Assembly: GCA_964016885.1 (NCBI GenBank) | Contig: OZ024743.1 | Location: 330,646,001-330,710,000, forward strand | DNA: 64,000 nt | DNA from: Eledone cirrhosa | Taxonomy: Eukaryota | Direction: 5' to 3' | Part shown: positions 6,423 through 64,000 of the stretch, piece by piece | Position numbering within the stretch: position 1 is the first letter of the stretch | Layout of the letters: each line of letters opens with the position of its first letter | Position numbers and translations under genes: made by a program | The notes under the pieces: generated by a model | Told to the model about the DNA's origin: nothing | Database searches by the model: none | The model's input: only the letters and a program-made list of their open reading frames with translations

Positions 6423-6798
6423 TCACAGAAAAAAGAGAATCAGTGTTGCGACGAATGGAATTTATTGTTTCTCTTGCGACCAGCTCGAGGCACGATCGAT
6501 GTGATGATCGAACCTGACAATGAAAATCATAAGGTCCTCAGATACGTCTTGATTCTACGAAGCAGATTTTCCTAGGAAGATGTATCTGAGGACCTTGCGA
6601 TTTTCAGAGTCAGGTTCGATCATCACATCGTTCGTGCCTCGAGCTAGTCGCCAGAGAAACAATTGTAATATGTCCAATAAATTCCATTCGTCGCAACTCG
6701 GATTGTCTTTTTTCTGTGATATCATATTCTGCTCTATGAGAGCATCGAGTGCTCATACGGCCTACCGCATACGGACGCTTTAAGCATCCAACACCAAT
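6423..6798. mobile_element. fold-back PLE-derived insert with tail
   Basis: Inverted arms ~6423-6550 and 6577-6720, GAAA caattg TA then AATAAA, tail 6721-6798. Confidence 0.65.
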
Positions 6799-6836
6799 TA
6801 TATATATATATATATATGAAAAATATGAAAATATGG

Positions 6837-7280
6837 CGTGCTGCGTGGTTGCAAATGGGTTACATATGAATAAAATTAGTTCTTCATCAGTGATCTTCCA
6901 GCCTTCATTGGTATTTCATCGCTTTAAAGACCATATACCTCTGGTTGGTGCGAGCAACGGCTAAAGAAAGTCGTTGGGACACGTAAATAGGGGGAACGAG
7001 TGAGACAGTAAACAAACAAAGATGGTAATGCAACGAAAAGTGAGGAAGGAGTCAGGTCCCTGAAATCGATGAACATAAGTTCTGTGAAATCGTAGACGAG
7101 AGAGAATAAAGACCATCCGACCTGGTCGAAGTGTGAGTGAGGAAAGAATCTCGCACAGGTCAAACGGGAGGAAGTAGGTGAGGGAGTAGCAGAGAGAGGG
7201 TGAGTGAAAGTATGAGGAAGAGGCTAACAGAGAGAGTGACTGGTAGAGGGGGTAAAAGGAAGTGAGAGATACAGATATAA
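6837..7280. repeat. interspersed repeat homologous to 34119-34770
   Basis: Shares ttcatcagtgatcttcca...aaagaccatatacc...gtcgttgggacacgtaaata and the downstream purine-rich block. Confidence 0.8.
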
Positions 7281-7837
7281 CTTTGATACTTTGATAACTT
7301 TGATAGGTTTCGGCTAGTATTGGCCCAAGCCATGTCTAACTTAATAGTACCACCAGCCAAAGTCTTTCAAATCAGGATTTGGACACCGTGGCCCACTCAA
7401 GTACGCAGTTATTGTTTACGGAGACATATCCGGTTGTTGGAGGTTAATCCGGGATTTCTTGAAGGAATTTGTCCAAAGACTTTTTGAACTATATATATAT
7501 ATGGGATAACAAGTTATCGTTATAGGTAATCCAGTTAGAGGTTGTGAGTAGTCTGCGTCGTGGATAGTTTTAACGTACGGCTTTTTTTTACTCAACAAGA
7601 TGTTTCCATAGTTATGCAGCGAGTTCGCTGTAATTTTTCTTACTTTTTTATGTACCCTATCTTATATTTCACTTTTACTTTTTACATCTGTAGCTTCTCT
7701 ACCTATTTACCATACATGTATTATTAATGATGTTATTGTTTAGATTATACGCTATTTTATTATTGATGTTATTGTTTTAATTACACGCTATTTTTCTATA
7801 TAAGTCTTGCATCGAGTGAATTACTTTCATATCTACA

Positions 7838-7946
7838 TACTCTGATGTGTTGACCAGAGGTGAATAATATATTGGAGATCGAATAACGCAACCTCAAGCG
7901 ATTAACGAACTCTAGACCCACGTGATCAACGAAACAATTGTCAGTA
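7838..7946 (+). ncRNA. type I hammerhead ribozyme, variant core CUGAUGU
   Basis: tact CTGATGT gttga...tcaac GAAA caattg TC agta, followed by AATAAA at 7952 and (TA)n. Confidence 0.65.
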
Positions 7947-8276
7947 CTTTAAATAAAGCCCTTATTGTACAGCCAACCATGTTAATCTTCATTCTTTAAC
8001 TATATATATATATATATATAAAAGGTGGAGAAACCGGTAATAGACAATAATTAAATATATAAATAGATAAATAAATGCCATTGTTAAATAATAAATAAAT
8101 CACTTCACACTTCACACAAAGTAAAACATTTCGTTTTAATCATTTTCTAACCCAGAAAAAAGAGAGACACAAAAAAAAGGGAAAAAATATATTTTTCTTC
8201 CTCATAATCGTCTCTTTCTCTCTGTGTTCATATATATATATATATATATATATATATATATATATATATATATACT

Positions 8277-8495
8277 TTTGGCAGCAGGCCAGCAATTATC
8301 CCAATGTATTATTGGTGCTTAATTTCATTTCGATTATATCGACACCAGTGAGTGACTGGTACTTTATTTTATCGACCCCGTAAGGATGAAAGGCAAAGTT
8401 AACTTCGGCGGAATTTGAACTCAGACCATAAAGGGCCGTAACTCTTTGCTATAAAGCATAGCGTCAGACCCTCTACCGATACTGTCAATCCACCT
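8277..8495 (-). mobile_element. tRNA-derived SINE, family 1
   Basis: A/B-box-like head (gagttcaaattcc) and body gcctttcatccttacggggtcgataaaataaagtacc. Many copies in this window. Confidence 0.85.
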
Positions 8496-60650: not shown

Positions 60651-60780
60651 AAATATATATATATATATATGGATAATACTGTAAATAAAACCCCTTTTTG
60701 TACCGTTGACCATGTTATTCTTCATTCTTTCAATATATATATATATATAGAAGTGGTTACACAACAGTTAGTTCACTATA

Positions 60781-60820
60781 CCGAGAACAATTATTTCACC
60801 TTCGCGGATCTTCAGCTCGG
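60781..60820 (-). ncRNA. minimal HHR in the 3' pLTR
   Basis: ccgag CTGAAGA tccgcgaaggt GAAA taattg TT ctcgg. Confidence 0.75.
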
Positions 60821-61003
60821 GATGTATATGGTTATAGGAACAGGAAGTACAACCGTACGAACGCGCATGCGCAGAAACTCGCTCACTTCCACAGGCAATA
60901 GTAGACTGCGTGCGGGGGGTGTAAGGAAGATAACTGCGAAAGTCCGGAAAGTTTTTTGGTTGAAAATAAAATAAAAAAATTTAAAAATAAAATTACAAAG
61001 AAT

Positions 61004-63098
61004 CAGTCCGGAGCCTTGTAGTTATGTAATAGATGTTTGGTGACGTGTGGACAACGTGTGAAAAATTCACTTCTCGTGTTTAGGCAATCACTATTGCGTA
61101 ATCTCTTTAGGATAGTTATTCGTTAGTCAACATATAAGCCACACGTCGGATTTCCCCTTGCGTATGGCTTGGACTTAGTGATGGCTTTCCATTGAATGGA
61201 GTACCCTATACTTGAGTCCTTGAGGGACCATACGTGGCTCGCGAGTTTCGTGGATGAACGTCTGTCCGGGTATCTGAAGGTAGACTGGTGGTTCAGGAAA
61301 CGCTCCTTGAATCGGCCCTCCGCCATGCCCACATAGGATTTGACCTCCTGTGGTTCGTTTGGTCCGTTGGAAGTGACCACAGCTTCATAGATTACAGCTG
61401 TTGCATTGTTGTTGAAGAGGGCAAGCGTCAGGCTTACGGCAAGATCACCCTGGTGGGGTGTTGCTCCTAGGGCTGCTGGTGATGTGGCCTTCATGTTCTT
61501 AGCGCAGGTGTATCCTAGTTTAACTTTGTGTCGGTTAAAGATGGAGCGGTATTTATGACCTATGGGGAAGTGTCTATCTAAGAGGGCTAGAAATGTTTTT
61601 CCTACATTGGTTTTAACGTTGAGTAAGAAGGGAGGAGAGAACCAGATAGTTTATCTATTGATGCGCTTACATTTTTTAATGGTGTTGTTGCTAGTGGGAG
61701 AGTAAGTGATAGGTTATGAGAAGCCGCTGTTAGCCAACTCCGTGTTATAGTAGGGTACCGCCCTGTCAAAGATAACCTTATTAGAGGAGAGGTTTGAGAT
61801 TCTAGTACTGATATTTTTAACGAAGTTTCTAAAAACAGTGGGAGGGTGGCATGAGTCCTTGTGAATATAATTAAGTTTATCGTTTACCTTATGGAAGGGT
61901 CTGTGGGTGTGTGTGCGAAGGTCTAAACTAATGTCTAAGAAATCCACGCTAGAGAGGTTGGTGGATACTGTTATCCTAAGGCCTAACTCATTGAAGGTAG
62001 AAGCTAAGTCTTTTTTAAACCGGTCGAGGGCGTGACCACTTTTATGGCTCGATAAAGTCAGTCCATCGTCACGGTATATTCCCGTGTGGAAGTCCGGGAA
62101 TCTAATACGTAATATGTCTAAGATAAAAAGGCCAACCAAGTCACATACGTCAGCACTGTCAAACGATCCCATGGAGACGTCGAACAGGTCTGAAGATGTA
62201 GACTTCTTTGCCCAGGCTACTCCGTCGTTGAAGAGGAGGGTTTTCCGGCAGTGAGCGATGATTTCCCTGTCTAAACCATCGACGGTGGTATAAGTGGTAG
62301 CGAAGTCCAACGCTTTGTTTAACAGGGTCTCTGAGATCGACGGGTAAAAATCTACAATGTCAAACTGTGTAAACTTCGCTTTTTTGGATTTTAAGGAGTT
62401 AAACCACTTAATTACGGAGTCGCTGTTCTCCCACTGGGGCAGGTTGGACTTGGTCCTAATAGCCTTAACTATGTTTCTATGTATGGCCTTACTGACTAGT
62501 CCCATATCTGTGCGTGCCGTGTTTATTAGTCTGCATGTGGGGTTAGAAGTAAAGTCAACCTTGTGATCTTTCAGGGTGAGGAATGCCTCTCGCTTAGCTA
62601 GAGATTGTAGCTTCTTATCTACCTTAAGGTCGGTGGCGAGTTCCTTGGCTTCTGTATTAATGTCGTGGTAGGCCATAGGGTAGCTTTCTTATATTTAGAA
62701 GTAATAGCGTTATGGGCCAGGTGGCAGAAAGTGGTGTTGTCGACTTCGTAAATATTGTTAGTTTTGTCGGAAAGGACGAAGGTGTTATTAGAAGACCTAA
62801 ATTTCTTAATATCGTTTCTGAGTTTCGTTTGAAAGGTGTTAGTGTGTTTGCGAAAGGAAATGTTAGCGACTAAGTCAAGAAGGTCCGTCTCGAAAGGAGC
62901 AAGTTCGGTTACCTTAGGAGGATAGGCTCTCGATTTCAGGTTGAAGGTGTTGTTTGTGCCTGTAATTTTGCCGTCGAAAGCGAGGGCTCGCCATATTAAG
63001 CGTCTGACGACATCTTCCGCTTTTTGTAGGAGGAGCTTTTGGTAAACATGGTTGGAGGGAGTTGGAATGTTCTTCAGGGAGTAATTCAGTTCGTATAA
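61004..63098 (-). pseudogene. PLE polyprotein: reverse transcriptase + GIY-YIG endonuclease, disrupted
   Basis: YSLKNIPTPS, SDKT, FDIVDFYPSI, MGSFDSADVCDLVG, YRDDGL, VDFLDISL, IWFSPPF, VIY...YVG, RFKERF. Frameshift ~62680, TAA at 61716-14 and 61653-51, further lesions in the linker and endonuclease. Confidence 0.93.
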
Positions 63099-63779
63099 AT
63101 GAAGGCCCACAACATCAGCAGCCCTAGTAGCAACACCCCACCAGGGTGCTCTTGCCGTAAGCCTGAAGCTTTTCCCCTTCAACAACAATGCAGCAGACCA
63201 GCTGTAATCTATGAAGTTGTGGTCACTTCCAACCGACCAAACGAACCACAGGAGGTCAAATCCTATGTGGGCATGGCGGAGCAGCCGATTCAAGGAGCGT
63301 TTCCTAAACCAGCAGTCTACCTTCAGATACCCGGACAGACGTTCATTCACGAAACACGCGAGCCACATATGGTCCCTCAAGGACTCAAGTATAGGGTACT
63401 CCATTCAATGGAAAGCCATCACTAAGTCCAAGCCATACGCAAGGGGAAATCCGACGTGTGGCTTATGTATTGACGAACGAATAACTATCCTAAAGAGATT
63501 ACGCAATAGTGATTGCCTAAACAAGAGAAGTGAATTTTTCAGACGTTGTCCACACGTCACCAAACATCTATCACATAACTACAAGGCTCCGGACTGGTTC
63601 TTTGTAATTTTATTTTTTAATTTTTTATTTTATTTTCAATCAAATAACTTTCCGGACTTTCGCAGTTATCTCCCTTACACTCCCCGCACGTAGTCTACTA
63701 TTGCCTGTGTGAAGTGAGCGAGTTTCTGCGCATGCGCGTTCGTACAGTTGTCCTTCCTGTTCCTATAACCATATACATC

Positions 63780-63819
63780 CCGAGCTGAAGATCCGCGAAG
63801 GTGAAACAATTGTTCTCGG
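63780..63819 (+). ncRNA. minimal HHR in the inverted pLTR
   Basis: ccgag CTGAAGA tccgcgaaggt GAAA caattg TT ctcgg. Confidence 0.8.
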
Positions 63820-64000
63820 TATAGTGAACTAACTGTTGTGTAACCACTTCTATCTAACTCGTCCCTTGGACTGAGTGCTCTACCACTACGGATATTACCT
63901 TCCAGTGTTCCACCACTATATATATATATATATATATATATATATATATATATATATATATATATATATATATATATATATATATTTAAGTCTGTCTCAA

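Follow-up and report, generated by a model that had tools for sequence, protein, structure and literature searches.

We examined a 64,000-nt stretch of the Eledone cirrhosa genome (assembly GCA_964016885.1, contig OZ024743.1, positions 330,646,001 to 330,710,000 of the forward strand), here referred to as the window. It is rich in simple repeats, contains many inverted insertions with an extra stretch, or tail, on one side, and includes Penelope-like elements (PLEs) of the Hydra clade. An original prediction, made from the letters of the window alone, held that the tails of otherwise unrelated PLE families share a bipartite cis signal, the octamer GAGTRCTC followed at some distance by CATACGGA. 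We found that the octamer makes up the 3′ strand of a hairpin together with its flank (RCTC, helix, loop, helix, 2-nt bulge, GAGY, RCT), which stands twice between the hammerhead and the start codon of Hydra PLEs, and that insertions end just 5′ of either copy. It is rather likely that each hairpin acts in the RNA, as a putative binding site for the reverse transcriptase (RT) that would set one of two internal starts. The insertions and hairpins identified in the window are listed here, with hairpin 1 being the copy nearer the hammerhead.

60750–63918: inverted Hydra-clade PLE insertion, arms 60750–61494 and 63099–63850, tail 63851–63918
61123–63104, minus strand: broken RT and GIY-YIG open reading frame (ORF) of the same insertion
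63785 (plus) and 60815 (minus): hammerhead cores of the same insertion
63857–63880, plus strand: hairpin 1 in the tail of this autonomous-type Hydra element, ACTC/GAGT, 4-bp inner helix, 1-nt bulge in the family
6726–6754, plus strand: hairpin 1 (6747 family), ATTC here and ACTC in relatives, 6-bp inner helix, TC bulge; arms 6423–6719, tail 6720–6798, CATACGGA at 6768
17075–17138, plus strand: hairpin 1 of family B, 40-nt loop; hammerhead at 16962, arms 16690–17066, tail to ~17214, CATACGGA at 17164
54173–54282, plus strand: solo tail of family B, truncated on its 5′ side; hairpin 1 keeps its 3′ strand, at 54201, and has lost its 5′ strand; CATACGGA at 54234
20021–20064, plus strand: hairpin 1 (20057 family), G.U in inner helix, TC bulge; hammerhead at 19916, arms 19597–20009, tail to ~20109, CATACTGA at 20072
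57321–57344, minus strand: hairpin 1 (57328 family), AAGT here against GAGT in relatives, one pair broken; hammerhead at 57422
57299–57292, minus strand: CATACGGA of the 57328 copy, directly before the tail end
9312–9339, plus strand: hairpin 1 of family A, arms 9194–9303
20298–20325, plus strand: hairpin 1, family A copy
21503–21530, plus strand: hairpin 1, family A copy
52039–52066, minus strand (the sense strand): hairpin 1, family A copy
6055–6108, minus strand: hairpin 1 with a long loop, predicted as a variant at 6054; arms 6117–6360, P1 probability 0.92–0.93
39588–39616, plus strand: hairpin 1, compensated GCTC/GAGC, predicted as a variant at 39608; arms 39111–39574
11651–11678, plus strand: hairpin 1, doubly compensated GTTC/GAAC, overlooked in the prediction; second copy at ~12169–12202
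33051–33075, minus strand: hairpin 1, GCTC/GAGC, also overlooked; arms 33082–33247
5775–5809, minus strand: hairpin 1, GCTC/GAGC, also overlooked; arms 5821–5944

The tail hairpin and its covariation

In each tail ACTC precedes GAGT, 5–20 nt past the end of the inverted arm, and the inner bases pair across a 2-nt bulge. The parts of the hairpin are a 4-bp lower stem (RCTC/GAGY), the 2-nt bulge on the 3′ side, a covarying upper stem of 2–6 bp, a free loop and the 3′ RCT flank, the conserved part being ~25 nt. Compensated forms were detected in tails that had been missed or listed as variants, namely GCTC/GAGC at 39588, 33075 and 5809 and GTTC/GAAC at 11651. The hairpin at 63857–63880, which has ACTACGGA at 63885, showed a P1 pair probability of 0.93–1.0.

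All 12 paired sites of the predicted motif were recovered, with spacers of 4–25 nt between its halves, as were the variants at 9332, at 52039 and at 39608, the last paired with CTACAGT; the variant placed at 6054 is present, at 6055–6062 on the minus strand. The six sites had been taken as separate families, but 17131 and 54201 belong to one family (81% over 112 nt), which leaves five, and the site at 54201 is in a solo tail without a hammerhead. In the 6747 element CTGAGGA is present but no GAAA follows it. With one mismatch allowed, neither half alone is enriched in the window (44 octamers against 38.9 expected, and 25 second halves against 63.5). Across the 3.0-Gb genome, a search for exact GAGTRCTC-N3-30-CATACGGA returned 5,185 matches, and its reversed control 4. 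Those 5,185 matches are repeat copies, and spacers of 13, 21 and 25 nt take nearly all of the first 100 matches listed.

We sampled the genome in fourteen 100-kb blocks at arbitrary positions (1.4 Mb), together with the window, and collected 115 one-sided tails, from which 6 of low complexity were dropped; the remaining 109 fell into 44 clusters. A single recent family, an explanation named beforehand, was rejected by these 44 clusters and by homologous ORFs that are ~40–50% identical. A structure-led descriptor that fixes only TC/GA matched 22 of the 44 cluster representatives against 3.1 expected from shuffles, and one of the 22 positive clusters (F1) is probably a chance pairing.

For the covariation counts, rows were anchored by sequence only and mis-anchored rows were kept. 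The first lower-stem pair is Watson-Crick in 23/26 families of this genome (14 A-T, 9 G-C) against 12.4 after permutation, and the first three upper pairs are so in 21, 17 and 16 of the 26, against 9.6, 10.8 and 6.6. Among 54 metagenome hairpins, in which the lower stem is almost invariant, the upper pairs are Watson-Crick in 48, 34 and 32 against 27.4, 15.8 and 13.6 expected. Pairing is confined to the register with the 2-nt bulge (0.84, against at most 0.27 in other registers). RNAalifold recovered the same fold unaided from 41 hairpins chosen for their short loops, with 95% of cells paired (0/500 shuffles as high) and changes on both sides in 6/8 pairs. The GCTC/GAGC form alone has 24,539 genomic matches against 1,799 for the control. 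Rfam covariance models gave 0 matches at E up to 10 in one element leader (L067:700–1080), and the best 150 of 509 matches in an Rfam scan of the window were nearly all microRNA models on simple repeats.

Two hairpins and two insertion ends

In read-through copies the order is hammerhead, hairpin 1, linker, hairpin 2 and ATG, and the two hairpins are spaced 67–144 nt apart in this genome within a non-coding region. For four window families a hairpin 2 was predicted to lie directly beyond the tail end, and a search with the tail end plus CTC or GCTC found it in 4/4. Its 3′ strand and flank were identified at 4/4 of the loci shown for family B (hairpin 2 in L339, L340, L343 and L346) and at 3/3 for the 57328 family (L359, L361 and L363, with hairpin 1 intact in L019), as well as at 2/5 loci of the 6747 family (2 decayed, 1 microsatellite end) and 1/4 of the 20057 family (3 microsatellite ends). 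Hairpin 2 comes with a Hydra ORF in the 6747 family (L356), the 20057 family (L372) and family A (L230), and it is followed by ATG in three relatives of the 63857–63880 element (L067, L052 and L072). The conserved unit to which the predicted octamer belongs extends 5′ of the octamer and recurs past the tail end.

The random blocks and the window were mapped to ten read-through references, which gave 183 sense 3′ ends, 143 of them abutting a microsatellite. Sixty-three of the 143 lie 0–22 nt before hairpin 1 (site 1), 77 lie 0–12 nt before hairpin 2 (site 2) and 3 lie elsewhere, so that 140/143 fall into two end zones where 12% would be expected; of the 40 other ends, 20 are within the zones. 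The placement of TAT/ATA is not the cause of this clustering, as 186/234 such sites are outside the zones. In one family, ends are joined to (TC)n tracts as well, where the bases match. Among inverted insertions, 49/50 have one end at each site, where about half would be expected under independent choice, and unpaired ends were found at both sites (26 at site 1 and 35 at site 2). Since ends are found directly 5′ of either hairpin, one each in 49/50 inverted insertions, the tail is the stretch that separates two hairpin-marked ends. The 5′ ends of copies are not gathered at the hairpins (2/16 microsatellite-abutting ends in the random sample and 3/39 in selected loci), so that an internal promoter or start there, one of the functions originally proposed, is not supported.

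The second half of the motif, CATACGGA, sits in the linker at variable distance from either hairpin, and its pairing partner, assessed by eye, differs by family. In the families of this genome ACGGA was found in 4/24 against 0.4 expected and the exact octamer in 2/24, while the metagenome linkers had 1/19 against 0.4 and 0/19, respectively. We therefore rejected it as a universal or constant second half; it is likely a lineage-restricted linker word, judging by this distribution.

The same word was also seen in loop II of the family B hammerhead (window 16981–16988, same sense as the tail copy). A further occurrence, on the minus strand, is in a (CA)n-flanked tandem pair at window 17315–17643 that was not found elsewhere in the 1.4-Mb sample.

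Hydra-clade hosts and their relatives

As judged from sequence, the hairpin marks Hydra-clade PLEs, whether from this genome, from metagenome loci or among the coral and sea-cucumber consensi already published. Elements of that clade have a single ORF in less than ~3 kb, an RT with C-terminal GIY-YIG, RWK, DKT in place of DKG, CxCx5C, a hammerhead in the pseudo-long terminal repeat and a (TA)n target (Craig et al. 2021, PMC8557442). Our hosts were assigned to it because their motifs, size, hammerhead and target match this list. The L067 unit is ~2.6 kb, with a 656-aa frame from ATG and a GIY-YIG-type YVG near the C-terminus. The element at 60750–63918, taken together with its longer copies, has RWR, DKT, CxCx5C, CxxC and CxH; RWR and DKT occur in P0001 and RWK in L372, and a CxCx5C linker, with CxxC and CxH around conserved E and N and with no CCHH, was seen by eye in the translations of the window and of L052/L065. 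Hammerhead cores are at 63785, 16962, 19916 and 57422, and insertion ends abut (TA)n; no complete hammerhead core was seen in the 6747 copy or in a further family, G. Viral contigs yielded no relative, Pfam no significant family and a PDB sequence search no match.

Hydra-type ORFs also follow in families A, 6747, 20057, F5, F25, F27 and F29. The families with an ORF found are all Hydra-type, so that they are not unrelated, contrary to what had been claimed. In several Hydra families (L309–L338), stop-free frames of 713–719 aa are numerous, and since such frames occur in many places these families have probably been active recently.

The sole unit of family B that was read through has 2,568 nt and no Hydra-like ORF, and keeps both hairpins and the hammerhead. 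In this it is like the animal non-long terminal repeat retrozymes, non-autonomous PLE derivatives that are ORF-less with PLE terminal sequence (10.64898/2026.07.22.740005, PMC7229834). The retrozyme papers, in their available text, name only the hammerhead as a shared feature, and family B, at 2.6 kb, is far longer than retrozyme units. Two more boxes, T(T/A)GAGTRCT followed by GGAAAAA, were observed in family B unit L344 with L379 (~2621 and ~2900) and in L343, mostly with ACTCGGAG ~40–50 nt later; they are possibly another structured RNA. Family G (L218, L228, L229 and L203) consists of ~600-nt tandem units without an ORF and appears similar to family B. Its hairpin 1 is GCTC/GAGC and its apparent hairpin 2 is TCTC/GAGA with a ~85-nt loop, no hammerhead core being seen near the end.

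A profile from 87 homologs retrieved 78 metagenome loci, 47 of which have at least 140 nt ahead of the ORF and form 33 clusters. Ahead of ATG, two hairpins were detected in 21 clusters, one in 9 and none in 3, where 1.4 clusters with any would be expected by chance. A model built from the short-loop hairpins matched 39/53 further metagenome loci, some being closely related to rows it was trained on. Of its 79 matches, 75 are on the ORF strand, which shows orientation and not which molecule acts, and 0/79 are in coding sequence, although coding sequence makes up 62% of those loci. A coding origin of the motif was rejected on this count and on its position 5′ of ATG. Forty-seven matches have a hammerhead core upstream, 33 of them at 43–64 nt and 14 at 107–131 nt after the core.

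Six published Hydra consensi from the supplement of PMC8557442 were inspected by eye in the available text, and the hairpin was clear in 3 (Hydra-2_Amil from a coral, Hydra-1_Ajap from a sea cucumber, with both copies, and Hydra-2_Ajap), imperfect in 2 and not seen in 1. Six octamers gave 27 matches in that text, which includes Naiad and Chlamys consensi and in which line breaks may hide some; 4 were at Hydra termini, and the surrounding text of the other 23 held no matching hairpin.

Routes to the inverted insertions

The prediction of a cis signal across PLE families was upheld, its nature being a duplicated, covarying Hydra-clade hairpin rather than a bipartite sequence motif, and recognition by the RT, one of the functions then listed, is the reading we favour. 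A hairpin-loaded RT priming once per break end is the simplest model. Poseidon starts at two sites, and each site here has a marker 3′ of it. The element protein, perhaps as a dimer, would hold both hairpins of one transcript and cut both strands of the (TA)n tract, and each free DNA end would be extended after annealing, over 2–4 matching bases, directly 5′ of one hairpin. Complementary DNA (cDNA) begun at site 2 would carry the tail, made up of hairpin 1 and the linker, which the site-1 cDNA would lack, and head-to-head joining of the two would yield an inverted repeat with a one-sided tail. We infer in this model that the hairpin acts as RNA, that the RT binds it, perhaps as a dimer, and that both primings use one transcript. 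Such programmed double priming (one transcript, two RT-loading hairpins, and a dimeric RT-endonuclease priming from each end of a double-strand break) is a tentative proposal, possible rather than probable; it would explain the inversion and the one-sided tail. A Neptune-like family at 43242 hints that hairpins of this shape, spelled differently, may serve other clades.

In vitro, Poseidon_Ac cuts and extends both strands of AT-rich DNA, its RT starts internally, at two sites between which the tail lies, and a dimer is predicted (Frangieh et al. 2024, PMC11167929). Our elements share with it an AT-rich target and a tail that follows the hammerhead and has one of the two ends on either side. 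For Poseidon_Ac, the available text of that paper hypothesises a protein-binding motif near the start sites and names no conserved or duplicated binding structure; its tail is 30–40 nt and inside the ORF, whereas the Hydra sites are 67–144 nt apart, in non-coding sequence, each with its own covarying hairpin. The Hydra clade paper (PMC8557442), as far as its available text goes, describes no structure 3′ of the hammerhead and no two-end rule. LINE-1 twin priming is similar in that both target ends prime on one RNA, which leads to inversion (PMC9148063). Its second primer anneals somewhere within the RNA, whereas the Hydra sites are fixed, with the same hairpin at each and overlapping arms.

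Other short helices that an RT binds may serve as analogies. Hepadnavirus epsilon is such a helix and fixes the site of copying, but it primes on protein. The template-adjacent helix of telomerase RNA (helix II in ciliates) may be a further parallel, as a short RT-bound helix with conserved foot bases that fixes the place of copying (PMC4993307). The telomerase helix is 5′ of the template and stops synthesis, whereas the Hydra hairpin would act from 3′ of the start and is present twice. PLEs are the closest mobile kin of telomerase, and the hairpin bears on how they choose where the RT starts; double priming, if true, would account for the inverted arrangement and one-sided tail of PLEs. A ~25-nt conserved hairpin just 3′ of both ends, in several animal groups, is a concrete candidate for an RNA ligand. 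It is likely the minimal cis signal for mobilising cargo, and the abundance of GCTC/GAGC matches in the genome makes it a sensitive marker of Hydra elements as well as of their derivatives without an ORF. Already known were the Hydra clade, RT-binding RNA helices, the tail and, for Poseidon, its two start sites. We found no description of the duplicated Hydra hairpin or of its tie to both ends in Rfam or in the literature searched, outside whose scope are subscription papers, Repbase reports and bioRxiv supplements.

Several observations weigh against the RT-loading reading. Half of the tail clusters (22/44) had no descriptor match in the representative, and these include some other clades, artefacts and decayed copies. 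In one family the bulge is 1 nt and hairpin 2 is ambiguous, and several hairpins fold weakly alone (57328, 20057, 20318, 21523 and 6747, P1 probability 0.14–0.33). The counts of G.U and A.C (9 vs 6, p 0.61) do not discriminate between sense RNA, the opposite strand and single-stranded DNA. Independent pairs on an ORF tree of the sequences gathered here agree in 5/5 cases, which are too few for significance (p 0.0625), and the reverse-complement control on the metagenome leaders was not clean (15/33) because the stem is partly symmetric. As regards the ends, the end zones were chosen after seeing the data, and two families dominate, with 69 and 36 of the 143 ends and 29 and 13 of the 50 pairs. 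Overlapping cDNAs from one stretch of RNA would moreover require strand displacement or two RNAs.

The rule of one end of each kind is also predicted by a fold-back route, in which the RT would start at site 2 only, the cDNA would copy itself and hairpin 1, as RNA or single-stranded DNA, would stop or cut the second strand at site 1. Many insertions are indeed short palindromes, and self-priming has been proposed for Penelope elements from junction palindromes (PMC3846280). The same hairpin would then have to signal a start in one role and a stop in the other, at equal distance, and neither the 26 unpaired ends at site 1 nor the start of the Poseidon protein at both sites in vitro (PMC11167929) suits this route, which we regard as unlikely. 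The tight distance of the ends from each hairpin could also mean that the hairpins direct RNA cleavage or 3′-end formation just 5′ of themselves, as a nuclease site or small ribozyme, with the RT starting at those RNA ends. Some ribozymes do cut at their own 5′ edge. Cleavage would be expected to leave RNA 5′ ends as well, yet 5′ ends are not gathered, and with only ~25 conserved nt, a free loop and no Rfam match at E up to 10, we consider this improbable.

If the motif is read as DNA, it could set the position of the ends by being recognised by an endonuclease or by working as an (antisense) promoter element. This fits the report that the D. virilis tail is needed for endonuclease recognition of plasmids (as given in PMC11167929); an antisense template has been proposed, and the G.U and A.C counts do not single out RNA. 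Duplex DNA, however, does not account for compensatory pairs over loops as short as 3 and as long as ~100 nt, the (TA)n targets are without the motif and the octamer is non-palindromic in 54/79 hairpins, so that this is quite improbable. In most metagenome elements hairpin 2 starts ~34–66 nt ahead of ATG, as would suit control of translation from the 5′ leader; ORF-less families keep both hairpins and the tie to insertion ends would go unexplained, which makes this role very unlikely. Least probable of all is the self-complementary RNA dimerisation octamer (GAGYRCTC) of the original prediction. Some families of this genome do have a palindromic octamer, but the centre is a C.A mismatch in 54/79 hairpins and the fourth base covaries instead with the upstream RCTC, by which dimerisation is largely refuted.

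Other elements were observed in the window and sample. At window 43182–43241 on the minus strand, with arms 43242–43778, lies a PLE family without the GAG motif, which we take to be Neptune-like; its tail is able to fold into a like-shaped hairpin (GTTT/AAAC, 2-nt bulge), and among 19 matches the upper stem reads CAA/TTG ten times and CGA/TCG five times. A second hairpin was not found in it, 111 pattern matches being scattered and without a recurring continuation among the 100 listed. In block C1a (3473–4270), a chimeric Neptune-like tail runs directly into a family G tail just 5′ of the family G hairpin, which suggests insertion of one element at the start site of the other, or a template switch to that site. 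Finally, a dispersed repeat with a tRNA B-box-like stretch, presumably a short interspersed element, was identified at window 8330–8494, 13273–13455, 22248–22483, 32466–32811, 50117–50517 and 52196–52444, two copies forming an inverted pair around 50117–52444.

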